DNA of 61,005 nucleotides, counting the filler, from Nitrospinae bacterium RIFCSPLOWO2_12_FULL_45_22 (GTDB lineage: Bacteria; 2-12-FULL-45-22): the NCBI GenBank assembly GCA_001803565.1. It is 5 parts of 5 records of this genome, joined end to end, with 100 filler letters (N's around TTAATTAATTAA, not from the genome) between each part and the next. Parts side by side here need not be neighbours in the genome. Positions count along the whole stretch, not along the records: positions 24,027 to 35,276 come from MHDQ01000313.1; 4 more parts are not named here. One strand, written 5' to 3'. Under the pieces are notes generated by a model, which did not search any database, was not told the DNA's origin, and saw nothing but the letters and a program-made list of their open reading frames with translations. The position numbers and the translations under genes were made by a program. This document shows positions 8,181 through 57,598 of the stretch, piece after piece; the first letter of the stretch is position 1; each line of letters starts with the position of its first letter.

Positions 8181-8516
8181 TTAATAAGGGTATCCTTAAT
8201 TTTCCAGTTAAGTTTGTTACCACAAAGACACAAAGAAATTAATTGACAACCCTTCGGCTGCTCCCCATGAAGCTAAAAGGGCGAGGCGCAAAGTGTAAAG
8301 CTAAGGAATAATCCCTTAATTTTGCGCTTTTCGCTTTAAACTTTGCATTTCCTTAGTGTTCTTTGTGGCTTTGTGGTTCATCTTAAATTTGTTATTAAAT
8401 AATACCAATTTAGACTAAAAATAGCAACGGCCGTTTGCGGGGTATTGCAACCGGCTACAATATCCTTTATTATAAACCTCTGTTCAAAGAATAAGACAAA
8501 TGGGAGATAAGGAGCG

Positions 8517-11383: not shown

Positions 11384-11533
11384 CTTGAGGTTGTCACATT
11401 AAAATTGAACCTCTCGTCTGTCACCCTGAGCCCTTCGCTGTGCTCAGGATAAACTCCGCGACGGGTCTCAGCTTGTAAGGAACGAGATTCTTCGCTTCGC
11501 TCAGAATGACATGGCAAATGTGACAACGTCAAG
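11384..11533. mobile_element. MITE-like element with about 17-bp terminal inverted repeats and internal REP-like hairpins
   Basis: cttgaggttgtcacatt (11384-11400) and aatgtgacaacgtcaag (11517-11533) are inverted with 1 mismatch. The internal agattcttcgcttcgctcagaatgaca also occurs at about 25753-25780. Confidence 0.7.
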
Positions 11534-12518: not shown

Positions 12519-12618
12519 NNNNNNNNNNNNNNNNNNNNNNNNNNNNNNNNNNNNNNNNNNNNTTAATTAATTAANNNNNNNNNNNNNNNNNNNNNNNNNN
12601 NNNNNNNNNNNNNNNNNN
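12519..12618. other. Artificial contig spacer (N44-TTAATTAATTAA-N44)
   Basis: The identical 100-nt spacer with all-frame stops occurs four times. Confidence 0.98.
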
Positions 12619-21309: not shown

Positions 21310-21409
21310 ACTTGTGAATTGAAATAAGAGGTGCTGACCCCAAAAAATTGGAGCTGGTTGTACTGTGAAATCTATGATTCCATTAGAAAAGGTTCACTGA
21401 ATATTTACC

Positions 21410-21531
21410 GTCACAGTTCAGCCCTATCGAAAATGAATGTCATTCTGACCGAAGGGAGGAATCTTTATTTACCTCCGGTCTCGGAAAGATTTCTCGCTGC
21501 GCTCGAAATGACAAAGAACCTGAACTGGTAC
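21410..21531. mobile_element. GTAAC-ended MITE (IS66-like ends), copy A
   Basis: Ends gtcacagttcag and ctgaactggtac, flanked by the 8-bp direct repeat tatttacc. Near-identical to the inverted copy at 57173-57295. Confidence 0.85.
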
Positions 21532-21586
21532 TATTTACCGAACTGATAATTACTTTTGGCTTGCTATAAGGGATACCATAACGGTT

Positions 21587-23926: not shown

Positions 23927-24026
23927 NNNNNNNNNNNNNNNNNNNNNNNNNNNNNNNNNNNNNNNNNNNNTTAATTAATTAANNNNNNNNNNNNNNNNNN
24001 NNNNNNNNNNNNNNNNNNNNNNNNNN
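23927..24026. other. Artificial contig spacer
   Basis: N44-TTAATTAATTAA-N44. Confidence 0.98.
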
Positions 24027-24040
24027 TTTTTGCCGAAAAA

Positions 24041-24850
24041 TTGGCTATCCCACAACGGAGAAAGGTCTTTATCAAACCCAACATGGTATCTCATGAAGAC
24101 TACCCCACTACTACTCACCCTGATACCCTGGATGCTGTGCTGGAATATGTCTCCCGTTCTTTGCGGCACGAAGTAGTTGTGGGTGATGCTGCGGCAGTGG
24201 ACCTGCCTGATCCTGGGCAGGCCATACTGAATCATCCACTCAGAAAAGTCTGTAAGACCCATGGAGTTCCTATGCTAGACCTCTACCAGGAAAGGCAATT
24301 ATATCGCGAGAGCCCCCGGGGTTACCCCATAAAACTGTCAGCTATCCCCGTAGAATCGGATTTTGTTATTTCTTTACCGGTATTAAAAGTCCATTTTATC
24401 TGCCAGATGACCGGTGCTCTCAAAAATCAGTATGGTTATTTGGCTAAAGGCGAGCGGCTGATGATGCACTATGATCCCAATTTCCCTGAAGAGATCAGGG
24501 AAGGGTTCCAGGCTATGGCAGCGGCAGACGGTATAACTGGGACGTTAGTGAAGAAAGATTTGGACCAGGGTATTGCTGAGGTGAATGCCCTGGCTATGCC
24601 CCATCTCTTTATTATTGATGCTATAGAGACCCTGATAGAGGCCAATGAGCAGCGTCATGGTGGCATCAGACAACCGCTGGGGCAGATGTTTGCCGGGACT
24701 GATCCGGTAGCATTAGACTGTTATGGCTTGAGCCTCTTACAAAAGTTAGAACCTAAATTGTCTCATAAAACGCCACTAGACATAAGATATATCAAACTGG
24801 CTATAGACTATGGGTTAGGCTCGCCGGACTATCAACTTGTTTGGCTTTAA
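24041..24850 (+). CDS. DUF362 domain protein (probably 5'-truncated at the contig start)
   Basis: VFIKPN, TTHP, ISLPVLKVH...MTGALKN..G and DPVALD motifs. Confidence 0.85.
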   Translation: MAIPQRRKVFIKPNMVSHEDYPTTTHPDTLDAVLEYVSRSLRHEVVVGDAAAVDLPDPGQAILNHPLRKVCKTHGVPMLDLYQERQLYRESPRGYPIKLSAIPVESDFVISLPVLKVHFICQMTGALKNQYGYLAKGERLMMHYDPNFPEEIREGFQAMAAADGITGTLVKKDLDQGIAEVNALAMPHLFIIDAIETLIEANEQRHGGIRQPLGQMFAGTDPVALDCYGLSLLQKLEPKLSHKTPLDIRYIKLAIDYGLGSPDYQLVWL

Positions 24851-24863
24851 CCTGTTTATTACC

Positions 24864-25697
24864 ATGGCTTACCAATTAATTGCAGATACGACCTTTATCG
24901 CCTTTGATGTAGAAACTACTGGATTATACCCGGTAGCAGGGAGAGTGGTAGAGCTCTCGGGGGTAAAATTCACGATTGATAGCGGAGTAATAGCTACTTT
25001 TGATGAGCTTATCAATCCCCAATCTCCTATCCCCCCTGAGGTTGTTCGTATCCATGGTATAACAGATGCGATGGTAGCGGAGCGGCCAACGGCTGACCTG
25101 ATTGTCCCGAGATTTTTGGAATTCATTGGTGGGCCAGAGATGGTGTTAATATCCCATAATGCCTCTTTTGATGTAGGCTTTGTCGGGGTAGATATTGCCC
25201 GCCAGGGCATAGCGGACCCAGGTAACCTGATCTTAGATACCCTGGTCCTTGCTCGACACTGCCTACCTTCTCTTGGCAGTTATAAGTTAGAAAACCTGGT
25301 GCGTTATTTTAATATACCCAGCCAAAATTATCACCGGGCCCTGGCAGATAGCTTTTCCGTTAAGGAAATATTTTTGTCCTTGCTCCAACGCTATCCCAAA
25401 ATAAAAACCATCGAGCAAGTACAGCAAAAGACTTATACCTTCCACTTTTCTGATGCGGCGACTTTCCAGGTACAATTACCCCCGGGCTTTGAAGACCTTG
25501 CCTGGGCTATGGAAAACAGTCTCCCAGTCGTTATGGTCTATAAAGGTGGATCAAAAGGCCCAGAACCCCGTATCATTACCCCTTTAGCTGCTATCCAGCG
25601 CAACGGTATTATTTATGTAGCGGCCTATTGCCACCTTGACAAGGTAGAGAAATCCTTTAGATTAGACCGCATAAAAGAATTTCGGATAAAAAAATAG
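24864..25697 (+). CDS. DEDDh 3'-5' exonuclease (DnaQ-like) fused to a C-terminal WYL domain
   Basis: FDVETTG, HNASFD and HRALAD; C-terminal Y...R.ITP...YVAAYCHL...KSFRLDRI. Likely start is the ATG at 24864. Confidence 0.88.
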   Translation: MAYQLIADTTFIAFDVETTGLYPVAGRVVELSGVKFTIDSGVIATFDELINPQSPIPPEVVRIHGITDAMVAERPTADLIVPRFLEFIGGPEMVLISHNASFDVGFVGVDIARQGIADPGNLILDTLVLARHCLPSLGSYKLENLVRYFNIPSQNYHRALADSFSVKEIFLSLLQRYPKIKTIEQVQQKTYTFHFSDAATFQVQLPPGFEDLAWAMENSLPVVMVYKGGSKGPEPRIITPLAAIQRNGIIYVAAYCHLDKVEKSFRLDRIKEFRIKK

Positions 25698-25831
25698 TAA
25701 CCGTTCTCTAAACCTGTTACCCTGAGCGGAGCGAAAGGTCTCCTTAAGGTTTAGATTCTTCGCTTCGCTCAGAATGACATGGAGCGAAGGGCTGAGAATA
25801 ACATGGCGATAGAAAGCTGGTGAACGGTTAC
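25697..25831. mobile_element. GTAAC-ended MITE (IS66-like ends) with a different interior
   Basis: Ends gtaaccgttc and gaacggttac, flanked by the 8-bp direct repeat aaaaaata. Its first G is the last base of the exonuclease stop codon. Confidence 0.8.
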
Positions 25832-25858
25832 AAAAAATAGAGGGAGGGAAAAAATTAG

Positions 25859-26482
25859 ATGATTTTGGAGACATTAGTAGTAAGCATGTTCGGGGTAAAT
25901 TGTTATATTCTGGGCTCAGAGCAAAGCCACGAGGCAGTAGTTATTGACCCTGGGGGGAATACTAACGGCATTATCGAGACCCTTAAAAAGCATGACCTGA
26001 AGATAAAATATATCCTGGCTACCCATTGCCATCTGGATCATATTGGGGCACTGAAGAAACTAAAAGACGCTACTGGCGCAGAATTCCTGGCTCATGCGGC
26101 TGAAGAAGGAGCGATAAAGTTGATGGGGCCTATGGCAGCCATGTTTGGCGTTAAAGAAAAATTCTGTCCTAAGCCCGATAAACCCTTGTCCGAAGGGGAT
26201 ATAGTATCCGTAGGTGAGATTGATTTAAAAGTGCTCCATACCCCGGGCCACTCCCCAGGTGGGTTATGCTTCCACAATAATGGCTTCGTATTCGTGGGTG
26301 ATACACTGTTTATGGGCTCTATAGGCCGGACGGATTTTCCTGGCTGTTCCTATCACGACCTTATTCAGTCAGTAAAGACCAAGATCTTTCCCTTAGGCGA
26401 TGATGTTCGGGTATATCCGGGCCATGGCCCCGCTACTACTATTGGCATAGAGAAAACTTATAACCCCTTCTTCCAGGAATAG
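25859..26482 (+). CDS. MBL-fold metallo-hydrolase (glyoxalase II-like)
   Basis: THCHLDH, HTPGHSPG, GDTLF.GSIGRTD and PGHGP motifs. Confidence 0.93.
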   Translation: MILETLVVSMFGVNCYILGSEQSHEAVVIDPGGNTNGIIETLKKHDLKIKYILATHCHLDHIGALKKLKDATGAEFLAHAAEEGAIKLMGPMAAMFGVKEKFCPKPDKPLSEGDIVSVGEIDLKVLHTPGHSPGGLCFHNNGFVFVGDTLFMGSIGRTDFPGCSYHDLIQSVKTKIFPLGDDVRVYPGHGPATTIGIEKTYNPFFQE

Positions 26483-26497
26483 GAATGGGGATTTTTT

Positions 26498-26575
26498 GTT
26501 TCGACTAAAAACCTATCAGCCATCAGGAATCCTCTCGATAAGATCCTGCTTCAAAATGGAGATGATGGGCTATGA
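26498..26575 (+). pseudogene. C-terminal remnant of an integron-type tyrosine recombinase
   Basis: Manual translation VSTKNLSAIRNPLDKILLQNGDDGL* resembles the (YTH)VS...I(K/R)(S/N)PLD tail of IntI-like integrases. It lies directly before the cassette array. Confidence 0.65.
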
Positions 26576-26607
26576 GAGTTCAAGCTTATCCATAGGGAGG
26601 CATATCC

Positions 26608-26678
26608 GAACCAGTTCGTCTATGCCTCCAAATTGGCGGTATAACGGAACCAGTTCAGAGATAAACAAGGTATATGAA
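26608..26678 (+). other. attI-like region with mutated core site (GGTATAT instead of GTTATAT)
   Basis: GAACCAGTTC direct repeat at 26608 and 26647, then gataaacaagGTATATGAA. Positions 26669-26692 match the reverse complement of 29797-29820 at 19 of 24 positions. Confidence 0.55.
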
Positions 26679-26731
26679 ATAGCGGTTGCAAGTTTTAATG
26701 GAGTCGATAAAATAATCGAGAGGCGTTTACT

Positions 26732-27709
26732 ATGAATATCTATGAGAAACTGACACGTTTTGTTAAGCAGGTTTTTAAAACCACTGTGGAAATATTCCTT
26801 GAAGCTTTGAAACTCAGTCCCAACGCTCAAGGATATGTCAGCGGCTCAATAACTGAACTTCTGCTGAAAAAGAAACTTGAGGAAGAATATGGGTTTGAAA
26901 TCAAAAGAATTAGAGAGAAATGGGAAGGAAGAAAGCACCTGCGCCATCATGGCGATTTTTATTTCAGAAAGCCTGATTCTTCATATTGGTATGTAGTTGA
27001 GTCAAAAGGGGTTAAATCTAATTCGGAAAAATGGCATAAGCTTTACAATTTCGATAACCTAAAAAATTTTTTGATCACTCATTCAGATAAAATTCCATGG
27101 ATAGATAATACACTTAATGTAGAGGAGCAAGTAACCAACTGGATTTACACCAACCTACCTAAGTTCCGAGATGAATATTTGTCTAATTTCTACGAGTACG
27201 AAGAAGTTCAGAAATACAAGTCTAAACGCGAAACAGAGAAAGCCAGAGATATTGCTGCATTGCGTGATTATACCCGCAACCAAATCAATGATATGATTGA
27301 AGAAAGGTTGAATTATGTGATGTCAAAAATAAAAGTCTTGGAAACTCACTTTGTTTCAGGCCGATCTGGAATAAGTGAACGAACGCAGGCAACTCCACGC
27401 AAGGACGAATTCAATGTTATCGCCATTAATATTGTCCTTCGGTACCCCGAGCATAAATTTCTATTTGCCAACCCCAAAAATCTAGAGTCATCAGGAGACG
27501 ACCCCAACCATTTACAGCAAAACTATATCATGGGTTTTATTTTCACCGGCGAACAAGGTAATCCAACTTTGACGATTACGGACGATTGGTATGAAGATTT
27601 AAAAGATGTTTATGATACATTAGATGCTGAAGATTCAGTGGATGAAGACGACATGCAAATTGATAACAGGCATATTGTTCTGGACGAGGGGGAACAAAAT
27701 GAGAAGTAA
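26732..27709 (+). CDS. PD-(D/E)xK nuclease, probable restriction endonuclease
   Basis: E...GDFYF...VESKG catalytic pattern; overlaps the start of the methyltransferase gene. Confidence 0.7.
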   Translation: MNIYEKLTRFVKQVFKTTVEIFLEALKLSPNAQGYVSGSITELLLKKKLEEEYGFEIKRIREKWEGRKHLRHHGDFYFRKPDSSYWYVVESKGVKSNSEKWHKLYNFDNLKNFLITHSDKIPWIDNTLNVEEQVTNWIYTNLPKFRDEYLSNFYEYEEVQKYKSKRETEKARDIAALRDYTRNQINDMIEERLNYVMSKIKVLETHFVSGRSGISERTQATPRKDEFNVIAINIVLRYPEHKFLFANPKNLESSGDDPNHLQQNYIMGFIFTGEQGNPTLTITDDWYEDLKDVYDTLDAEDSVDEDDMQIDNRHIVLDEGEQNEK

Positions 27710-29801
27710 AAAGAGTAAGAAGAACATATATAAGCCTGTTACACAACAAGAATGGAAAGTTAAAGAACAGCAACTTCTCTTTTCTGAAGAGAGTTTGCTG
27801 CCACAAAACCTACCACACTTAAAAGAATTACGCCAAGTACACAATCTCTCAGCCATATTCGATGAATGTCATAATTATATCTATGCTAATGAAGGATTAC
27901 TCAAGGATAAGATATTTCACGAAATTGTAAAACTTCTTACCATGAAACTTTATGATGAGCAGAATACTACAGATGGCATTTTGCAATTTGGAATTACTTC
28001 AAGTGAATATAGAAGCATACTTGCACATAAACCAGGTAACTTTGAAGTTCGTATCAACAAACTATTCAATACAGTGCGAAATAAGTATCAGTCTTTGTTC
28101 TCGGACGATTCACTAAAATTGAAACCCCTAACGCTTGCTTATATTGTTGGACGATTACAGTTTGTTAACCTCACTCAGATACCCGGTGACATCAAGGGTG
28201 AAGCCTTTCAAAAGTTTGTCTATCGGCATCAACGGGGAGATCGTGGTGAGTTTTTTACTCCATATCCAATTGTAAGATTGGCTGTCGAAATGATGGCTCC
28301 AAAACCCAATGAAATGGTCATTGACCCGGCCTGTGGGAGTGGCGGTTTTCTAATTCAAACCATCTCACATGTTTGCCGAAATAATCCCAATATTGATAGG
28401 AGAGGCTACATCCAGAAACGTATTTATGGCATTGAGTTTAATCCCGATGTTGCACTATCCGCGATGATTCGACTTGCATTCGAAGGTGGTACAGGCACAG
28501 AAATCATTTGTGCAAATGCCTTAGTAGAAAATGAAGAGTTTAATAATGCTTTTGATGTGGTTCTCACCAATCCACCTTTTGGCAGCAAAGGTAAAATAGA
28601 AGAGCAAAAGATTCTCAAATTCTATCAGTTGGCTCGTAAATGTAATAAATCTCACAAGGGCGATTGGGAAGTGACGAGAAATGTTCTTTCAGGACAATCT
28701 CCAGAAATTCTTTTTATCGAGAAATGTTTGAAGTTACTTCGCCCTGGTGGTCGTATGGCAATTGTCTTGCCAGATGGCTTGCTTCAAAACATTACCAATA
28801 GTCATATCAGATTCTGGATCCGTTCTCAAGCTAAAGTGTTAGGTGTTGTTTCAATTCCACAGGAAGCTTTCGTACCATATGGCACGGGAATCAAGACCTC
28901 TCTTCTCTTTTTACAAAAAATGCCTTCCGATTCAGAAAAAGTATTCATGGCTCAAATACAAAAGATTGGCTATGATGTAAAAGGGCAACCTATTCACAAG
29001 AAAACAAACGATGGCAAGATGGTGAGAGGGGAATCAGGACTACCCATTGTTGATACGGACATAGATGAGATTATTTCAGAATACAACAGGTTTAAAAATG
29101 GCGAATATGAAATAAATAAGGAAAGCATTCACACAGTTCCTGAGAAATCCTTAAATACACGCTTGGACGTACAACATTATAAACTAGAAGATAGAAAGCT
29201 TCTTGAAATGTTGCAAGCAAGTGAAGCAAAACTACTTGGCGAATTAGCAGATATTCTCAAAGAAACCGACGATTTCCGTTTGGCGTCCAATGGCGAAATA
29301 AGATATATCGCCATTTCCGATGTTGATGCACGCACGATGCAAGTAGTCTCTTATCAAATAATTAAACCACATGAGGCACCATCAAGGGCAACTTACCGTG
29401 TACGGACTGGGGACATTATTACTGCTGTATCTGGTGCAAGCACTGGTACAAAACGACATGCAACCGCATTGATTACCGAGGATGAAGATGGAGCAATTTG
29501 CTCTAATGGTTTTGCTGTGCTCCGTAATATTCATGGTATAGAACCGTTATTCCTTTTATCATACATGCGTACGGAATATTTTTTGCGGCAGGTTAGACGC
29601 TTGATGACGGGTCATGCTATTCCAGCAATTTCTATTGAAGATTTATCAAAGGTGCTGGTGCTGGTTCCACCAAAAGAAGTTCAGAAGCAAATATCTGATG
29701 AAATTGCAAAGGTTTTGTCCATGCGTAAAGAAGTATTCAAAGTCGGGGGAAGAGTTATAGAAGAGGTTGAGTCATTAGTAGGTAAAATGATTAAAGCATG
29801 A
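27699..29801 (+). CDS. N6-adenine DNA methyltransferase (HsdM-like) fused to a C-terminal target-recognition (HsdS-like) domain
   Basis: GEFFTP, DPACGSGGFL, NPPF and GGRMAIVLP motifs; C-terminal V..GDII...AICS.GFAVL...P.I...L....VPP...Q TRD pattern. ATG at 27699 with SD gagggg (track start 27624). Confidence 0.88.
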   Translation: MRSKKSKKNIYKPVTQQEWKVKEQQLLFSEESLLPQNLPHLKELRQVHNLSAIFDECHNYIYANEGLLKDKIFHEIVKLLTMKLYDEQNTTDGILQFGITSSEYRSILAHKPGNFEVRINKLFNTVRNKYQSLFSDDSLKLKPLTLAYIVGRLQFVNLTQIPGDIKGEAFQKFVYRHQRGDRGEFFTPYPIVRLAVEMMAPKPNEMVIDPACGSGGFLIQTISHVCRNNPNIDRRGYIQKRIYGIEFNPDVALSAMIRLAFEGGTGTEIICANALVENEEFNNAFDVVLTNPPFGSKGKIEEQKILKFYQLARKCNKSHKGDWEVTRNVLSGQSPEILFIEKCLKLLRPGGRMAIVLPDGLLQNITNSHIRFWIRSQAKVLGVVSIPQEAFVPYGTGIKTSLLFLQKMPSDSEKVFMAQIQKIGYDVKGQPIHKKTNDGKMVRGESGLPIVDTDIDEIISEYNRFKNGEYEINKESIHTVPEKSLNTRLDVQHYKLEDRKLLEMLQASEAKLLGELADILKETDDFRLASNGEIRYIAISDVDARTMQVVSYQIIKPHEAPSRATYRVRTGDIITAVSGASTGTKRHATALITEDEDGAICSNGFAVLRNIHGIEPLFLLSYMRTEYFLRQVRRLMTGHAIPAISIEDLSKVLVLVPPKEVQKQISDEIAKVLSMRKEVFKVGGRVIEEVESLVGKMIKA

Positions 29802-29813
29802 AACCGCCACTTC

Positions 29814-29902
29814 ATATAACACAGCATAAAAGGTTCGTGCCTTACGGCACTCACCCAAATTTTTGCTTCGCAAAAACTTCTTTTATGCTGGAAACGTTAT
29901 GT
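29814..29902 (+). other. attC integron recombination site
   Basis: ATATAAC...GTTATGT outer boxes with perfect 11-bp inner arms cagcataaaag (29822-29832) and cttttatgctg (29880-29890), plus internal hairpins; begins 13 nt after the MTase stop. Confidence 0.85.
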
Positions 29903-29989
29903 GAAATTGCGTCCCTGAAAGATGTGGTTGTCCTTCATGGCGACCCTAAATGACAAAAAAAATGATAAAATATTGCAGGAGATTATCCA

Positions 29990-30274
29990 TTGAAAATAAA
30001 GAGCATCGTTTGGTTTAATGACATCATTGAGAAACTTATACGCAAACATAATGTTCAACAATATGAAGTCCGAGAGGTTTTGGCCAACAAACCTCATTTC
30101 AGGTTTGTTGAGAAAGGACATCGCACTAGTGAAAATGTTTATGCAGCACTGGGTAAGACTGATAGCGATCGTTACCTCGTGGTCTTTTTTGTCTATAAAA
30201 CTGATCAACGTGTCTTAATTCTTTCGGCGCGGGACATGACAAAAGCAGAAAGGAGACGATATGATAAAACATAA
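29990..30274 (+). CDS. BrnT/DUF4258-like ribonuclease toxin
   Basis: IEKL..KH.V...EV.EV, Y.ALG.T...RYLVVFF and ILSARDM...ERR.Y motifs. Confidence 0.85.
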   Translation: MKIKSIVWFNDIIEKLIRKHNVQQYEVREVLANKPHFRFVEKGHRTSENVYAALGKTDSDRYLVVFFVYKTDQRVLILSARDMTKAERRRYDKT

Positions 30275-30527
30275 AAGTTCAGTATCAAAGGCGACAACCT
30301 ACAAAGAAATTGGCGAGTTCTGGGACACTCATGATTTATCAGAGTTTTGGGATAAAACCAAAGAAACCTCCTTTGAAGTTGATATTGAATCAGAGGTCAC
30401 TTATTACGCTGTCGATAAGATGCTCTCGGAGAAAATACAAGCTATAGCTCAAAAACGTGGTGTTACCGCCGACACTCTGATTAATCTTTGGGTTCAAGAA
30501 AAACTTCAGGAACAAAAAGCATCATAA
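30261..30527 (+). CDS. BrnA/CopG-like antitoxin
   Basis: EFWDTHDL motif plus C-terminal RHH (IAQKRGV...TLINLW..EKL); overlaps the toxin stop. Confidence 0.85.
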   Translation: MIKHKSSVSKATTYKEIGEFWDTHDLSEFWDKTKETSFEVDIESEVTYYAVDKMLSEKIQAIAQKRGVTADTLINLWVQEKLQEQKAS

Positions 30528-30539
30528 AAGGCGAAGATA

Positions 30540-30731
30540 ATGGATGACACAGAGATTAGAATTAATGGGATAGAAGCTTTAAATAAGGCTCTTGGTCCTG
30601 CTGCTGCCCTCAGATTCCTTACTCTGCTCCACCGTGAGCCGACCGACTATGTGGAAATCTCTCGGCGGCTCTATGAGGGACAGACAATAGACGAGATATT
30701 TGAAAGGGCAAGGGAGCATTGGAAGGAATAA
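30540..30731 (+). CDS. Small hypothetical protein, antitoxin-like (no partner toxin seen)
   Basis: 63 aa with a GIEAL..ALG...ALRF...DY pattern that I associate with PIN-linked antitoxins. Confidence 0.55.
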   Translation: MDDTEIRINGIEALNKALGPAAALRFLTLLHREPTDYVEISRRLYEGQTIDEIFERAREHWKE

Positions 30732-30920
30732 TCCAGTGGCCGCAATGGCAGATAACACGTCGTGGGCGGCTGGCGCCCAAACCCGTCACTTTAAGCAATC
30801 AAAGGCCGTTTGCCGGTGAGGTATCTTGGCGTACGCAGGTACAAGAAAATTCTGGTTAAGTTTATAACCACAAAGACACAAATTATTGGTTATTGGTTAC
30901 TGGTGAGATGCCACCCTTAT

Positions 30921-31613
30921 ATGCAAAGGAAGCTGATGTCCTTTTATTTATCGCTTGTCTTAATCATAGTGGGTTGCGGCGGCCAGGGCAGCACCAAGGG
31001 TAGTGTGACTGCGGCAGGGGCGGTGCTCGGTACAGCGGCTATGCCTGGTTTTGGAACCGCAATAGTGGCTGGGGTAGGATGGGGTGATGAGAGGGCTGTC
31101 AATGAAGGAGAGGCCCAAAGCCATAGGGAAGCGATAAGGGATGAGGTACAGAAGCAGATAGATTTGCAGCAAAAGCTCCTGGCACAAGGCCTGCACTACT
31201 CAAACATTACTGAAAACATGACCAAAGAATTTGCTTCAGAAATAGAAAAAGGCAGGTTAGCAATCTTTGATAATGGAGCAGGTTTAAATCTTTACCTTAA
31301 TGAGACCTTTTTCTTTCCCCAAGCTAAAACCCTCAGTAAAGAGGGTAGGGTTATATTCCACAAGATATATGAGAAAATATCTCCTACCCCACAGGTATTA
31401 TTTATAGTTGAAGATAGTAATGACAGCCGTAAAAATGACTCCGGACAAAATATCTGGTCTGTAGCGAGTTTTTTGCATCAAAAAATGCCCCTCAAACCCA
31501 AGCAGGTTCTGGTTAAGAGCAATGGTAAGCTGCTAAATATTTCCCGCAAGGCCGCCGCCCTTCCTCCTAAGGCTTATTCTGTTAGAATAATCCTCATTTC
31601 CCCCAGCACCTAA
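30921..31613 (+). CDS. Lipoprotein with glycine zipper and degenerate OmpA/MotB-like C-terminal domain
   Basis: Signal peptide MQRKLMSFYLSLVLIIVGC and GAVLG...GTAIVAGVG zipper. Likely start is 30921 (track start 30810). Confidence 0.6.
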   Translation: MQRKLMSFYLSLVLIIVGCGGQGSTKGSVTAAGAVLGTAAMPGFGTAIVAGVGWGDERAVNEGEAQSHREAIRDEVQKQIDLQQKLLAQGLHYSNITENMTKEFASEIEKGRLAIFDNGAGLNLYLNETFFFPQAKTLSKEGRVIFHKIYEKISPTPQVLFIVEDSNDSRKNDSGQNIWSVASFLHQKMPLKPKQVLVKSNGKLLNISRKAAALPPKAYSVRIILISPST

Positions 31614-31738
31614 GTGCTTCATTTCATAAATACAGTTACGTATTATGCCTATTTTTAACCTTTCCTGTATTCCTGGTTTCCTTATCATAAGCACTTTCTC
31701 TCAAATACGTCACCGTAATTATGGATTAGAGCACCTAA
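31611..31738. repeat. Degenerate inverted-repeat (MITE-like) element
   Basis: Ends taagtgcttcatttcataaatacagttacgtatt and aatacgtcaccgtaattatggattagagcaccta; agcacctaag occurs at both ends. Confidence 0.5.
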
Positions 31739-31867
31739 GACTTCTTTGATCATGATAGGAGCAGATGCTATTTGCCCTACCAGCTTGGTCAACAATATAG
31801 GACTAGAGGCTTGGCCCTAGCCCGATTAGCCCAAATAACAATTGATTTCAGGGCTATAAAAATTTTG

Positions 31868-31896
31868 TTGACAAAGTATTCTTTCTGGGGTATTTT
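31868..31896 (+). promoter_or_regulatory. Sigma70 promoter giving a probably leaderless TA transcript
   Basis: TTGACA-17 nt-TATTTT ending 6 nt before the ATG at 31903; no SD. Confidence 0.6.
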
Positions 31897-31902
31897 TGTA
31901 GT

Positions 31903-32133
31903 ATGAAAGTCAAGACATCTATAACCTTGTCTGAAGATTTACTGAAAGCGATCGACGAATATGCAGGGGAATACAAAAACAGGTCAGAATTCATCGAAGA
32001 TGCTGTCCGGGCTTTTATCATACAATTGATCCGCAGCCAGCAAGATGCCAGAGACCTTGAGATTATCAATCAGCATGCGGATTATTTAAACCGAGAAGCA
32101 GCGGATGTTCTTACCTATCAGGTCGCTCTGTGA
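31903..32133 (+). CDS. Ribbon-helix-helix (CopG-like) antitoxin
   Basis: [13 protein letters not shown].......RSEFIE.A pattern; overlaps the toxin start (GTGA). Confidence 0.88.
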
Positions 32134-32468
32134 AACGTGGTGAATTGTATCGTGTTGTTAACCCTTCAGCCAAGGATCCCAAAAAATCCAGAGTCTTTGT
32201 TGTTGTAAGTCGCCAAGTTCTCATCGATTCTCGTTTCTCCACAGTCATTTGCGCCCCGATTTATTCAGCTCATGACGGTCTTTCCACTCAAGTCATAGTT
32301 GGGGTGGATGAGGGATTGAAGCATGATAACACTGTTCACTGCGATGAGCTTGTGAGTTTGCCTAAGTCGCTTCTGACCAACTTTGTCGGATCGCTCTCTC
32401 CACAAAAAACCGAAGAGCTTAATAGGGCTCTAAGTATAGCCTTGGATATTCGGGATTTAAAGGGCTAA
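32130..32468 (+). CDS. PemK/MazF-family toxin
   Basis: MKRGELY.V.......K.R.FVVVS, VICAPI and VG.L......L..AL motifs. Confidence 0.9.
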
Positions 32469-32553
32469 CAAGTCAGTCAAGCTGACGTCGTGGAGCGTGG
32501 TTTGCTTTTTCTGGAGGGACAGCGGTCGGCGCGGCTGACTTCCGTTGTTATAC
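32463..32553 (+). other. attC integron recombination site
   Basis: GGCTAAC overlaps the toxin stop, inner arms aagtcagtc and ggctgactt, ends GTTATAC. A matching TTAGCCC lies at 31826-31832 upstream of the TA promoter. Confidence 0.85.
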
Positions 32554-32602
32554 GGAAAGATTTCTCACGGCGCTCGAAATGACAAAGAACCTGAACTGTT
32601 AC
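32553..32602. mobile_element. Right half only of the 21410/57173 MITE
   Basis: ggaaagatttctcacggcgctcgaaatgacaaagaacctgaactgttac matches the 3' half of copy A. Confidence 0.75.
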
Positions 32603-32609
32603 GAATTTT

Positions 32610-35159
32610 TTATGCCTTATAAATTCTTACTTTTTGGCATAGATCCAGATTATTGGTGGGCATATCAGTATGCTCCAGGTCAATGGGCTGGAGCTCGCAT
32701 ACCCGCGCCCCTTTGCCTTTGGCAATCGGGAGCCCTTCTGCCCAATGGCCACAATTATTAGCTATCCCCAGGGCCTCGGGATGGATCCCTTCGGTCAACC
32801 TGACCCGCCCTTTTATCTTATAGCCATCTATGGATTCTATCCAGATCAGGTCACCATCTCTTATACTACGCCTTTTCCCTTCGCCGGCATTGATGACTAC
32901 ATAGTAAGTCCAGGGGTCCAGCTCTGAAAGCTCATTCAGCCAGGGGTTCTCCATAGTCCAGGAGAAGGTATGCCAGGCTACCCGATAATAGAAGGCATAG
33001 AAATCATATCCCGCTTGCTCCACCAAATGCGATGGGCAAGGCTTCCAATCGGGCAAAGGCTGATAATCGCTGATATCCCAGTTGATACCCAACTCGCTGG
33101 TAATCTTCTTGATATCTTCCCCTACCCGTAAAAAGTATTCAAAATAGATAGGTATCCGGACATCCACAAAGGCCCGCCAATAGACTTCTTCTACCTTCTT
33201 AGGCCATTTGATCAGGCCATGCTCCTTGAACCACTCTAGCCCATGCCCTGGTCCAAAATATGACTTGGCCCACCGGTCTACAACCTCTTCCCAGGAATAT
33301 TTGCCATTGGGCTCCAGCATATATGGCCCGGTTAGACCACCAGCAAAATTGATCACAGCATAAAAATCCTCCAGGAACCCTATCCGCTCAGCCAATTCTA
33401 ATAAGACCTCATTAGATGATCGGATACTGGCAGGTGGTTCAACTACTGGCTGTCTTATCTGCCAGGCCCATTCCCCTCGGCCGCCCGGGAAGTTGAAGAT
33501 AAGGTTGTTTATCGGGTAAGTATCGAGTCGTTCCAGATAGCAGGCATCAGGCAAGACAATATCAGAAAAGTCAGTAGTCTCATCCAGGGTGAGGTTAAAA
33601 GAGACAATGAAAGGGATATTTTTGAGGAAATTAGCTATTATCTGAGGATTACCCAGGCTGAACAAGAGATTAGAGCCAAAGTTTATCATAACCCCGGCAC
33701 CATAGGGCACCCCCCATTTCTCTGGATCCAGGACAGTTAAGACCGGCATGTATGAGCCAATGGCCAGGGGAAGAAATTCTGATAGGGTAAGGGATTCCGG
33801 CGATTTGACTTCGCCCGGGGGGAAGGGCACCGTCGGTACTACCCAGGTCCCAGTGACCATAAGACCATCCGGGCCGGGCTTAGGGATATAATTGGGCCGG
33901 CCCGTCTCTGGATGACCATGACATACCGGGTTAGTACCCAGGATCCCACCCGGGACATCACATGCCCCCATCAATAAGTTTAACAATTCCAGGGACATAC
34001 AGGTAAGGAGGGAGTGTTTATGGCCCTGGGCCCCTTTAAAATATACAATGGCTGCGGGCCGGTAAGGCAGCTCCTTGCCCTCGATATTAATGGTGCTACC
34101 GATGCGGGCTGCCTGGCCAAATTCCTGTGCCAGCCGCCGGATGGTATGGGCCGGTATGGTAGTTATTTTGGCGGCCTCTTCTGCGGTATATGGTTTTATA
34201 TGATCTTTTAGCTTCTGGAAGGCAGGCTGCGCTTGAATCCCCTGGATTTCATAGCTCCCTTCCAGGGCATAATCCTTTATTGAAGGATCATCATAGACCT
34301 TCGCCTTGCCCTCAACGGTATCCCATACCAGGGGCTTGCCAGTCTCTTTATCCCTAAGATAATAGCCATCAGGTCTGATCAGATACGGGGCATTAGTATG
34401 GGTTTTGAGATGTTCGGCATCATAAATACCCAGCTCATTAACCAGGGTGTTAATCATAGCCAGGGCCAATGCTGCATCTGTCCCTACCTTTATCGGTATC
34501 CATTCATCGGCTTTTTCGGCCGCTGCATTGAGCATGGGGTCTACTACTACTACCTTCATACCCCGCACCCGGGCATCAGCACACCTCTGGGATATAGTAC
34601 TGAAGCTGTAATAGGTCGCAAAACCGATATTGCAGCCAAATATTATAAGATAATTACAATGGTCGTAATCCGGTATCTTGTTCCAGGAGGCATGGAGCAG
34701 GCAGGAGAAGAGGTGCTCTCCATTGCCGCAATGGATACCAGCACCCGAAGGGTACCAGTTAGGCGTGCCGAAGGCGGTAGCAAAACAGAGCGAGTTTAGC
34801 ATAGGCCCTACATTGGCTACTGAACCGGTTATTATTAACTTCCTGGGGTCTTCCTGCCTTACCATCCGAAGCCCCTCTGCGATAGTGTCCAGGGCCTCTG
34901 CCCAATCAATCTCTACCCACTTAGGGTCTATCCCAATCCCTTTCTCTGGATTGCTCCTTTTTAAAGGTCTTTTAACCCGGTAAGGGTCATAAAGGGTCAT
35001 TATGCCCGAAAGACCCTTGGGGCATAAGCGGCCCAGGCCGGCAGGACTATTGGGATTTCCTTCAATCTTCACCAGGGTCCCATCCACCTGGTGTGCCATT
35101 ATCCCGCAACTGTTATAACACATACTGCATGCCGAGGGTATCCAGGTACCTTTATCCAT
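32610..35159 (-). CDS. Mo/W-bisPGD (DMSO reductase family) oxidoreductase catalytic subunit, cytoplasmic
   Basis: CSMCYNSC...RLCPKG FS0 motif, GTDAALALA, SDIVLPDA.YLER and a C-terminal molydop-binding domain; no twin-arginine leader. Confidence 0.92.
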   Translation of the reverse strand: MDKGTWIPSACSMCYNSCGIMAHQVDGTLVKIEGNPNSPAGLGRLCPKGLSGIMTLYDPYRVKRPLKRSNPEKGIGIDPKWVEIDWAEALDTIAEGLRMVRQEDPRKLIITGSVANVGPMLNSLCFATAFGTPNWYPSGAGIHCGNGEHLFSCLLHASWNKIPDYDHCNYLIIFGCNIGFATYYSFSTISQRCADARVRGMKVVVVDPMLNAAAEKADEWIPIKVGTDAALALAMINTLVNELGIYDAEHLKTHTNAPYLIRPDGYYLRDKETGKPLVWDTVEGKAKVYDDPSIKDYALEGSYEIQGIQAQPAFQKLKDHIKPYTAEEAAKITTIPAHTIRRLAQEFGQAARIGSTINIEGKELPYRPAAIVYFKGAQGHKHSLLTCMSLELLNLLMGACDVPGGILGTNPVCHGHPETGRPNYIPKPGPDGLMVTGTWVVPTVPFPPGEVKSPESLTLSEFLPLAIGSYMPVLTVLDPEKWGVPYGAGVMINFGSNLLFSLGNPQIIANFLKNIPFIVSFNLTLDETTDFSDIVLPDACYLERLDTYPINNLIFNFPGGRGEWAWQIRQPVVEPPASIRSSNEVLLELAERIGFLEDFYAVINFAGGLTGPYMLEPNGKYSWEEVVDRWAKSYFGPGHGLEWFKEHGLIKWPKKVEEVYWRAFVDVRIPIYFEYFLRVGEDIKKITSELGINWDISDYQPLPDWKPCPSHLVEQAGYDFYAFYYRVAWHTFSWTMENPWLNELSELDPWTYYVVINAGEGKRRSIRDGDLIWIESIDGYKIKGRVRLTEGIHPEALGIANNCGHWAEGLPIAKGKGARVCELQPIDLEHTDMPTNNLDLCQKVRIYKA

Positions 35160-35181
35160 AGCTTAACTCCTCTTATATTTA

Positions 35182-35276
35182 TTAAAGGTTCAACAGTCTT
35201 TGGGCATTGCCGCCCAGTATGGCTTCTATTTCCTCCTGGCTAAAGTTAATACCCGGGGGGGCATTTTGGGGTAAGT
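35182..35276 (-). CDS. C-terminal end of an amidohydrolase-family protein (partial)
   Basis: Translation ...FSQEEIEAILGGNAQRLLNL* has the typical ILG.NA.RLL amidohydrolase_2 tail. Confidence 0.65.
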
Positions 35277-35376
35277 NNNNNNNNNNNNNNNNNNNNNNNN
35301 NNNNNNNNNNNNNNNNNNNNTTAATTAATTAANNNNNNNNNNNNNNNNNNNNNNNNNNNNNNNNNNNNNNNNNNNN
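35277..35376. other. Artificial contig spacer
   Basis: N44-TTAATTAATTAA-N44. Confidence 0.98.
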
Positions 35377-35512: not shown

Positions 35513-36469
35513 ATGGTAAAGTCTCAAATCCTTGAGCTGATTATTGTTGGTGCTGGCCCGGCAGGGTTGGGAGCGGCTTATGCTGCTAAGAAGCAAGGGT
35601 TCAGCTATCGGGTCTTGGAAGCGGGTAAGATTGTAAATACAGTTCATGAATTCCCCCTCAATAAAACTCTCTTTTCTCAACCGGAGGAGTTGGAACTCGA
35701 AAAAGGGAGCTTCCTATGCCTTAATAAACACCCTACCAGGGAAGAAACCATTGCTTACTATACTAATTTTGCCAGGGAAAATCAACTAGAAATAGAGACT
35801 TACAATCAGGTAGTAGATATTACCAAACAAGGTGATCTCTTTGAAGTCCATTCTGAAAAAAGTATTTATCTATGCCGTTATGTCATTGTTTGTATAGGCG
35901 TAAATGCCATTCCGAGGAGGTTAGGGGTACCGGGAGAGGATTTGTCCAAGGTATCCCACCGGTTCTGGAAAGCTGATCCATATCGTTATAAGAAGATACT
36001 GGTAGTGGGTGGTGGCGATTCCGCCCTGGAGACGGCCCTTTCCTTGTGCCAGGTAGAAGCAGAGGTTTCCTTGTCATATCGCCGTGCCCGGTTTGTTAGA
36101 CCCCAAAAGATAAACCTGCTCCCCTTTTTAGAGAGAGTAGAAGGTGGCTTGATAAAGGTATTGTTCGAAACTGTGGTAAAGGAGATACGGCTTAAATCTG
36201 TTATCCTTCAGAGGAAGAGTGAGAGTGGGAGAGAGGAGGAATTGCTCAATGATTTTATTTTCCTCATGACTGGTACAGAACCAGCCCTGGATTTCCTTTC
36301 CCGTATTGGTATAGAGATCAGAGGCCGGTATCCAGTCTATGATGAAGAGACCTTTGAGACTAGAATAAGCGGTTTGTATCTGGCGGGCCACATTACTAAA
36401 CAAAGATTTATTAAAAATGCCTTAGACCATGGCCCCAAAATTATAGAGCAACTGCCTAGTTATGCCTAA
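35513..36469 (+). CDS. FAD/NAD(P)-dependent disulfide oxidoreductase, YpdA/TrxB-like
   Basis: GAGPAG, PTREE...YY, VVGGGDSA.E.A and TFET...GLYLAG motifs; lacks the TrxB CxxC. Confidence 0.85.
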   Translation: MVKSQILELIIVGAGPAGLGAAYAAKKQGFSYRVLEAGKIVNTVHEFPLNKTLFSQPEELELEKGSFLCLNKHPTREETIAYYTNFARENQLEIETYNQVVDITKQGDLFEVHSEKSIYLCRYVIVCIGVNAIPRRLGVPGEDLSKVSHRFWKADPYRYKKILVVGGGDSALETALSLCQVEAEVSLSYRRARFVRPQKINLLPFLERVEGGLIKVLFETVVKEIRLKSVILQRKSESGREEELLNDFIFLMTGTEPALDFLSRIGIEIRGRYPVYDEETFETRISGLYLAGHITKQRFIKNALDHGPKIIEQLPSYA

Positions 36470-36509
36470 CTGTATTTATGAAATGAACTGCTAAGGAGGG
36501 ATGAAAACG

Positions 36510-55274: not shown

Positions 55275-55374
55275 NNNNNNNNNNNNNNNNNNNNNNNNNN
55301 NNNNNNNNNNNNNNNNNNTTAATTAATTAANNNNNNNNNNNNNNNNNNNNNNNNNNNNNNNNNNNNNNNNNNNN
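55275..55374. other. Artificial contig spacer
   Basis: N44-TTAATTAATTAA-N44. Confidence 0.98.
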
Positions 55375-57086: not shown

Positions 57087-57172
57087 TCCAGACCCCTATA
57101 TTTACCACAGATGCACGTGGATTAACACAGATTTTTGTCAAAAAATTAAACACAAATGGACGAATTACACGA

Positions 57173-57295
57173 GTAACAGTTCAGGTTCTTTGTCATTTCT
57201 AGCGCAGCGAGAAATCTTTCCCAGACCGGAGGTAAATAAAGATTCCTCCCTTCGGTCGGAATGACATTCATTTTCGATAGGGGCTGAACTGTTAC
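57173..57295. mobile_element. GTAAC-ended MITE (IS66-like ends), copy B
   Basis: Perfect 12-bp TIRs gtaacagttcag and ctgaactgttac, with 8-bp direct repeat ttacacga; inverted copy of 21410-21531. Confidence 0.9.
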
Positions 57296-57598
57296 TTACA
57301 CGAATACTTTAGTTGACTATCCGCTTGCATCTTACCTTCTCTATCATTCGTGTCATTAGTCCATTCGGGTAATTCGGGTTCCACTCTTCATCTACTATGT
57401 TCCGGGAAGAGCAAGATTATTTTTTGCCTCATCGGAAGGGTGCGGGTACAAGTTTTGTAGATTCTATTATAACCCAAGTTCTCACTGGGAGGTGATAATT
57501 TTTTGCTCCTCGTTTTTTCCCGCCCGCTTGAATGGTAAGACCGTTTGTTGTATCATCCCCTTTGGCCTCGCTGATTTTTGTGTTTTCACCTGGTTCAA

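Follow-up and report, generated by a model that had tools for sequence, protein, structure and literature searches.

Which kind of system placed restriction-modification and toxin-antitoxin genes between the last codons of a recombinase gene and integron-like recombination sites? The question is raised by positions 26498-32553 of the window, by which we mean the whole 61,005-nt stretch of DNA analysed here, from Nitrospinae bacterium RIFCSPLOWO2_12_FULL_45_22. A reading made from the sequence alone (hereafter the sequence-only reading) had described this block as a decapitated, frozen integron with an integrase tail, a mutated core site and a cassette array bounded by attC sites. Our analysis suggests that 26498-29908 is probably the head of a gene-capture platform that is integron-like but non-canonical and from which the recombinase has been lost. 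The platform is thus integron-like, as had been proposed, but not a classical integron, since its recombinase belongs to the NF040815 family, the examined members of which lack the IntI insertion.

The analysed contig spans window positions 24027-35276 (11,250 bp), and a public metagenome contig (L083) is identical to it. Comparisons were made with 401 genomes of the phylum unless a smaller set is stated. Four sequencing runs were compared via their assembled contigs, from which rare variants get dropped.

The recombinase relic and its family

The frame 26483-26572, which is closed by a stop codon at 26573-26575, translates to EWGFFVSTKNLSAIRNPLDKILLQNGDDGL. Judged by sequence comparison, the 25-codon peptide in this frame is the C-terminal tail of a tyrosine recombinase of the Xer-like NF040815 family, and not of a classical IntI. 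Compared with 98 distinct C-terminal tails of the recombinase family, the window peptide scored 78 and shared 15 of 24 residues, among them the final GDDG. Of all 3263 six-frame peptides in the window it ranked first, the runner-up scoring 40, and none of 2000 shuffles reached its score (shuffle maximum, 45). Against 37 classical IntI tails it scored only 46, a value reached by 1 of 5000 shuffles and by 0 of 4734 null windows, and a profile of 29 classical IntI did not single it out (E=60, rank 16 of 3281). The 30-aa peptide had no match in Pfam or NCBIfam. The sequence-only reading had taken the peptide for the end of an IntI-like recombinase pointing toward the cassettes; the recombinase tail and its direction were borne out, and the resemblance to IntI was not. 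The term "decapitated" is apt, in that the recombinase is missing save for its last 25 codons, the catalytic YTH codons having already been lost.

The decisive lead to the recombinase family came from matching DNA in other genomes. The 218-nt segment 26483-26700, which comprises the tail and the attI-like site, matched 7 of the 401 genomes at E<=1e-4, and the relic DNA was 74-77% identical to relics or pseudogenes in genomes G340 and G008. The same tail was found in several states of decay: a pseudogene in G340 with its tyrosine codon changed to a stop codon, a frameshifted relic (EENYTHV / AKNLSKIKRPLD) that heads an array in G144, a 79-aa fragment in G008 and a 56-aa fragment in G316. When the G316 fragment was used as a query, 7972 of 8000 scored candidates had E<=1e-5, which indicates a very large family. 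The best 120 of the 8000 candidates were 78-98% identical over the 56-aa fragment, and some of the rest may be other tyrosine recombinases.

Full-length members of the family have 360-430 aa, carry an N-terminal extension of ~90 aa and end in the pattern ...IYTHVSTK..I.SPLD..L..GGD; a close full-length relative was present in 9 of 301 genomes. All five full-length relatives examined passed NF040815 (230-248 bits, cut-off 220), a model that NCBIfam names "site-specific tyrosine recombinase/integron integrase". With the integron-integrase model TIGR02249 the same five reached 221.7-235.8 bits, in two stretches and below the cut-off of 265. When the relatives were aligned with two classical IntI, they proved to lack ~37 residues of the IntI-specific insertion. 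The window relic lies on the same strand as the sites described below.

It should be noted that the relic shares its reading frame with the upstream metallo-beta-lactamase (MBL)-fold gene, from which it is separated only by the TAG stop codon of that gene (26480-26482) and five codons (26483-26497). This shared frame is probably due to chance (one in three).

The attI-like site and the start of the first cassette

Directly behind the relic, the sequence GAACCAGTTC occurs at 26608 and 26647, its only two copies in 61 kb. The expectation was 0.09 copies, and at least two copies were found in 0 of 100 shuffles. The sequence lies inside a 22-nt direct repeat, the two copies of which (Table 1) are 82% identical. 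Both the repeats and the core that follows them are conserved directly 3' of intact recombinase genes, on the same strand, in genomes G151, G039 and G084, as well as after the G340 pseudogene and the G144 relic. The direct repeat had been called reminiscent of attI, and its recurrence behind intact genes supports that view. The consensus of these attI-like sites ends with AAACAAG/TTA, where the slash stands at the presumed crossover point.

The window core reads AAACAAGGTA, with GGT at 26669-26671, and the identical contig L083 has the same GGT. GTT was present in six of seven aligned sequences, namely five homologous sites in other genomes and a second haplotype of the same locus (contig L085). 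This haplotype is 99.7% identical to the window over 3846 nt, with 11 differences, one of which is a G to T change at 26670. The contigs of all four runs also have T at 26670, together with five neighbouring changes. Because L085 and the contigs of all four runs read GTT, the GGT form is a variant of one assembly and not a fixed state of the lineage, a comparison in which contigs cannot tell the frequency of the GGT form. The GGT core is thus present in the window as had been noted, but the idea that it froze the platform did not hold.

Eight of the 11 differences in L085 are packed into 86 nt (26596-26681) around the presumed crossover, and both sides of the core differ. From the sequence, such clustering appears poorly explained by point mutation or by simple site-specific exchange. 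Farther downstream, L085 departs from the window inside codon 11 of the BrnT gene (L085 3847-4531, window 30024 onward) and runs in frame into a 225-aa capsid-like frame, which reflects either a chimeric assembly or a real rearrangement.

The first unit of the array runs from 26671 through a terminal hairpin site and opens with GTATATGAAAT, or with TTAGATGAAAT in the other haplotype; the next unit, after that site, starts with TTATGTGAAAT. The pattern G[TG]TAnnnGAAAT was matched at both 26669 and 29896. Furthermore, 26671-26699 and 29790-29818, the 29 nt just before the TAAC of the hairpin site, are 83% complementary, which fits a circular cassette with an extended foot. The inverted match pointed out by the sequence-only reading is therefore real and longer than had been reported.

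A family of hairpin sites distinct from canonical attC

To score attC sites we used two canonical covariance models, both of our own build and not those of IntegronFinder. The first (R1) was seeded with 7 class 1 integron attC, taken from three plasmids, and with 12 sites adjoining IntI genes of the phylum. In its shared structure 86.2% of the cells were paired, versus 69.7% in shuffles, and 0 of 500 shuffles reached 86.2%. Genuine attC scored 24.7-60.4 bits on R1, the dfrA1 attC scoring 28.3 bits. The second model (R2) was built on 54 sites. The whole window was scanned with R1 with filters off. Rfam has no attC family, and an Rfam scan gave no meaningful match. An initial motif-based attC finder was symmetric, overlooked the canonical site at 32463-32553 and was dropped.

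Two clear attC sites had been claimed for the block. The distal one, 32463-32553, was upheld as the top R1 hit in the window (E=1.6e-4), but 29814-29902 belongs to another site family: it reached 9.8 bits on R1 (plus strand, E=7, fifth rank) and was absent from the R2 hits at E<=10. Its bottom strand folds at -24.4 kcal/mol (z -5.85). Close copies of this element, 80-94% identical, were found in 24 of the 401 genomes. Their conservation begins at TAAC and ends at GTTA, and the flanks differ on both sides in 12 of 12 aligned copies. Two of the four runs (X3 and X6) each have 3-4 other contigs that match 29817-29899 only and then diverge. By a 21-nt word, the hairpin element is single-copy in five of five genomes, and it always lies just 3' of a co-oriented gene. 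The canonical model found nothing within 1.5 kb of 20 hairpin copies. The element was also considered as a dif-like Xer site, which was rejected since the flanks are not conserved.

A hairpin model (R3) built from 11 copies had 84.6% of its cells paired and 9 two-sided pair changes, versus 4.4 in shuffles (reached by 3 of 500), and it found diverged members in 12 of 151 genomes. The window site 29808-29908 was a seed of this model, so that its own R3 score is circular; its membership is given by the independent copies in other genomes and by arrays of diverged members. Members share a common plan of ACTTCnnnTAAC, a covarying stem, a hairpin, CCCAAAT, a second hairpin, ACTTC, a return stem and GAAAC-GTTAnnnGAAAT. 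Such sites form co-oriented arrays in seven loci at a spacing of 0.5-2.4 kb: six sites in L128 (G014:C63), five in L131 (G144:C28), four in L133 (G039), three in L129 (G014:C41) and two each in L127 (G014:C84), L130 (G014:C39) and L132 (G008:C308). The canonical model found no sites in these seven loci.

A probable platform that has lost its recombinase

Hairpin sites lie 3' of an intact recombinase gene, on the same strand, in four of eight fetched loci (L165, L166, L167 and L171); among the remaining four loci, three stop within 450 nt downstream of the recombinase gene. Co-orientation of recombinase and cassettes, which the sequence-only reading regarded as atypical, is thus the usual layout in the NF040815-type family. 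The tail, the attI-like site and the hairpin site of the window are homologous to those of intact systems, and the intact systems have this layout.

On the reading that we favour, a Xer-like NF040815 recombinase of 360-430 aa, lacking the IntI-specific insertion, reads in such systems toward an attI-like site with two direct repeats and the core AAACAAG/TTA, behind which co-oriented cassettes follow. Each cassette starts with TTAnnnGAAAT and ends in a branched hairpin of ~95 nt that runs from ACTTCnnnTAAC through CCCAAAT to GAAAC-GTTA. The recombination chemistry and the crossover point are assigned by analogy with integrons: exchange would take place at G/TT on folded single strands. The window has kept the last 25 recombinase codons, an intact attI-like site and an intact first cassette of 3.2 kb, composed of a candidate restriction enzyme, a methyltransferase and the terminal hairpin site. 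Its cassettes would presumably be movable now only through a recombinase acting from elsewhere in the genome. The distal ribbon-helix-helix (RHH)-MazF-attC unit either forms the far end of a rearranged array or is a classical cassette that was inserted on its own.

Several observations weigh against this interpretation. The complete genome G039 has an intact recombinase with an attI-like site, and no hairpin site lies within ~18 kb downstream; its four-site array is ~330 kb from the recombinase, and no recombinase is found within ~8 kb of the array. Seven of 12 genomes with hairpin sites also have a classical IntI, and the partner enzyme of the sites is thus unproven. The hairpin sequences are close to one another, which keeps their covariation modest. 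No excision joint was found at site or cassette boundaries in the contigs of the four runs, a result of little weight given that contigs drop rare variants. The canonical attC at 32463 is foreign to the hairpin system, and the interval that separates it from the hairpin site is free of sites of both types, so that a single continuous array is not demonstrated. Despite these points, we regard the loss of a recombinase from a non-canonical platform as the likely history of 26498-29908.

With respect to the partner enzyme, classical IntI was found in 7 of 12 genomes with hairpin sites versus 150 of 401 genomes overall, and no clear link was seen. Genome G039 (L061, L133, L164) also carries a classical integron, with an IntI of 498 bits and a canonical array.

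A broader proposal can be advanced only tentatively, as we hold it somewhat less likely to be right than wrong: that there is a second, widespread kind of integron, with a Xer-like recombinase lacking the IntI helix for single-strand recombination, a two-repeat attI of its own and ~95-nt branched hairpins, that is invisible to current integron finders, and of which the window holds a beheaded copy with a classical attC cassette in its array. If the array were indeed mixed, the two systems would exchange cassettes. A large helix-less family heading hairpin-bounded arrays would make the origin of integrons directly testable, and surveys based on IntI and canonical attC would then overlook a reservoir of mobile defence and toxin-antitoxin genes. 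As for the window, it provides a clear example of platform decay, a naturally occurring pair of GGT and GTT forms at the presumed point of crossover and a junction of both site types.

The distal part: one array or two events

The canonical attC at 32463-32553 (plus strand) was also detected by R2 (E=1e-3). The stop codon of MazF lies within its GGCTAAC box, the site ends with GTTATAC, and the left half is built in the usual order of ...TAAC, five spacer bases and ..TCAAGCTGAC. A weakness of this assignment is that 32463-32553 alone folds no better than shuffles (z about -1). The 11.25-kb contig has one canonical site, where an attC cluster that has no integron integrase (CALIN; Cury et al. 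2016, PMC4889954) takes at least two attC within 4 kb. By the canonical model it is a SALIN, a single attC without an integron integrase (Loot et al., preprint 10.1101/2022.09.11.507474).

The strongest alternative holds that the locus records two unrelated events, namely the beheaded platform at 26498-29908 (perhaps extending to 30731) and a single classical RHH-MazF-attC cassette (~31826-32553) that IntI acting in trans put into a host repeat as a SALIN. Neither hairpin nor canonical sites were found within 29903-32462, and repeats of the host type surround the lipoprotein-like gene in this interval. One of them (30850-30882) matches 8202-8234 at 88%, and repeats of this kind recur beside housekeeping genes on other contigs. 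The lipoprotein-like gene is therefore probably not a cassette, which fits the earlier suggestion that it may be chromosomal. The distal unit has a sharp right edge: position 32553 is the last of the attC, and a truncated host repeat, in the form of a half palindrome, begins at 32554 (junction 32553/32554), the missing half being carried by other copies in the runs. At the left, positions 31826-31832 (TTAGCCC) complement the GGGCTAA that flanks the canonical attC and may be the 5' end of a 0.72-kb RHH-MazF cassette. Loot et al. also describe IntI-driven insertion of single cassettes at genomic GWT sites. On the other hand, two such elements on the same strand within 2.6 kb would be a coincidence unless the region is a hotspot, the base before TTAGCCC is A and not G, and six bases (TTATAC) after the crossover G lie outside the host repeat. 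Two separate events are thus a serious possibility, which we nevertheless hold to be the less probable history.

The putative RHH-MazF cassette has promoter-like boxes (TTGACA/TATTTT) at ~31868-31897. Just after the stop codon of the lipoprotein-like gene lies an imperfect palindrome of 127 nt (31611-31737), one arm of which recurs at 36462-36496 after another gene. Across the four runs, this palindrome had 23-43x the summed depth of the left-flank bin; in each run the contigs are interrupted at 31638-31705, a stretch in which the summed depth reached 132-622. The half palindrome at 32554 belongs to a palindromic element of ~125 nt with GTAACAGTTCAG ends. Full copies of this element at 21409-21533 and 57171-57297 are 96% alike, a sub-repeat occurs at 11485-11514 and 25753-25782, and its summed depth in runs X1 and X2 was 336-352, versus about 14 nearby.

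Three further candidates in this region were rejected. A possible decayed site at 30751-30828 (AGATAAC ... GGTATCT) did not reach 8 bits and folds like shuffles (z +0.5 to +0.6); the fold of a short candidate at 31793-31832 was likewise no better than expected by chance. We also considered that the entire 6-kb block might have entered as a single insertion at G/TT (26498, 32547); its common left boundary dissolved, as the relics in G340, G008 and G316 extend further upstream.

Two improbable readings

The locus might instead be the remnant of a classical integron, with a tail derived from a true IntI of the group with inverted orientation and with two ordinary attC sites. Classical IntI is common in the phylum, being above the cut-off in 137 of 401 genomes, and one of 13 array loci (L065) has the inverted layout; the site at 32463-32553 is a canonical attC; and Cury et al. 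(2016) reported intI pseudogenes near 15 of 279 CALIN as well as an inverted integron-integrase group, e.g., in Treponema. However, the tail matches the NF040815-type family far better than classical IntI, by tail score and by profile alike, and the site at 29814-29902 fails the canonical model. The attI-like site is common to genes without the IntI insertion, and the hairpin model found no sites beside 20 classical intI genes. We consider a classical origin of the whole locus to be improbable.

Equally hard to credit is the absence of any recombination platform, with the hairpins and the conserved segment behind the recombinase being terminators, small RNAs or repeats and the cassette-like layout being incidental to a defence island: intergenic palindromic repeats abound in the genome, and the position of the hairpin behind co-oriented genes, its single copy per genome by close sequence match and the missing excision joints would all suit this explanation, but conservation stops at TAAC/GTTA with both flanks differing in every aligned copy, other contigs of the runs match the element only, the sites form co-oriented arrays with cassette-sized spacing of 0.5-2.4 kb, and relics or pseudogenes of one recombinase family head such loci.

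Genes and genomic setting

The features of the locus are collected in Table 1. The sequence-only reading was right to see a two-gene restriction-modification unit bounded by the attI-like site and a hairpin site. The cargo it listed was confirmed by family matches for the methyltransferase, BrnT, the CopG/BrnA-type antitoxin, the RHH antitoxin and PemK/MazF, whereas the 325-aa and 63-aa genes match no family. The 325-aa protein had no sequence match in Pfam, NCBIfam, PADLOC or the PDB; its look-alikes by a protein language model were type II restriction enzymes (0.83-0.86), which is a lead only. The methyltransferase matched PADLOC MTase_II at 272.6 bits and has an alternative start at 27624. 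The 63-aa gene had no match in Pfam, NCBIfam or PADLOC. In runs X1 and X2, other contigs have a copy 89% like it next to an attC1-like half, and a 41% identical copy is present in L123.

Table 1. Positions of the recombinase relic, the recombination sites and neighbouring features in the window.
Feature	Position	Strand	Evidence and remarks
MBL-fold gene	25859..26482	+	Pfam Lactamase_B 105.6 bits, profile positions 4-196 of 196
Tyrosine recombinase gene relic, last 25 codons + stop	26498..26575	+	tail score 78
attI-like site	26590..26676	+	hairpin 26596-26629; repeats 26596-26617, 26635-26656; core AAACAAG/GTA 26663-26672
325-aa gene, candidate restriction endonuclease	26732..27709	+	overlaps methyltransferase gene
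N6-adenine DNA methyltransferase fused to one specificity domain	27699..29801	+	N6_Mtase 131.9 bits, Methylase_S 30.7 bits
Non-canonical hairpin recombination site "attC1" (putative)	29808..29908	+	TAAC 29817-29820, GTTA 29896-29899
BrnT toxin	29990-30274	+	Pfam BrnT_toxin 46.5 bits
CopG/BrnA-type antitoxin	30261-30527	+	Pfam CopG_antitoxin 38.5 bits
63-aa gene	30540..30731	+	family match: none
Lipoprotein-like gene	30921..31613	+	host-genome dispersed repeats on its flanks
RHH antitoxin	31903-32133	+	Pfam RHH_1 27.3 bits
MazF/PemK toxin	32130-32468	+	Pfam PemK_toxin 50.4 bits
Canonical attC	32463..32553	+	R1 28.7 bits; R2 26.3 bits
Half copy of dispersed ~125-nt palindromic repeat	32554..32602	+	91-94% identical to halves 21482-21536, 57173-57221

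The MBL-fold gene is the chromosomal left flank and lies outside the element. A convergent molybdopterin oxidoreductase gene is also found in the region. The nearest relative found for the flanking oxidoreductase was in an uncultured Thermodesulfobacteriota genome (L016, 69% identical), and the gene order of this genome, the closest found via the oxidoreductase, had nothing in common with that of the locus. The window as a whole is a chain of at least five contigs joined by linkers at 12519-12618, 23927-24026, 35277-35376 and 55275-55374, each consisting of TTAATTAATTAA between two runs of 44 N; neither distances nor skew have any meaning across these linkers.

Comparison with known systems

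Integron integrases are thought to recombine folded single strands through the gain of one extra helix (Escudero et al. 2020, PMC7790495). Archaeal IntI are reported to keep the additional domain (Ghaly et al. 2022), and in an integron-like subgroup the IntI insertion was said to be "not fully conserved" (Smyshlyaev et al. 2021). Our literature search, supplementary lists aside, found no published description of cassette arrays headed by recombinases without the IntI domain.

The locus resembles the inverted integron-integrase group described by Cury et al. (2016) in that the recombinase points toward attI, the cassettes are co-oriented, the folded palindromic sites have AAC/GTT ends, and the cargo includes toxin-antitoxin and defence genes. 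It differs in that the recombinase family here lacks the IntI-specific insertion and falls below the TIGR02249 cut-off, and in that its sites, which escape the canonical model, are branched hairpins of ~95 nt whose centre is a conserved CCCAAAT and whose foot is extended (ACTTC/GAAAT). As in CALIN and SALIN, cassettes with recombination sites occur without a functional integrase nearby. However, unlike CALIN, the locus has only one canonical attC, and the relic and the first site belong to another system.

The relatives of the lost recombinase are similar to XerA/XerC/XerD-type resolvases, since they pass NF040815 and have a catalytic domain of plain Xer length with RHRY-type boxes. Unlike Xer resolvases, they carry the N-terminal extension of ~90 aa and an IntI-like ...SPLD tail, and they adjoin attI-like repeats and cassette arrays instead of the 28-bp dif site. 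Finally, the restriction-modification and toxin-antitoxin genes at this locus recall sedentary chromosomal integrons, in which defence and toxin-antitoxin genes are likewise carried as cassettes (bioRxiv 10.1101/2024.07.02.601686), but the arrays described there depend on a classical IntI.

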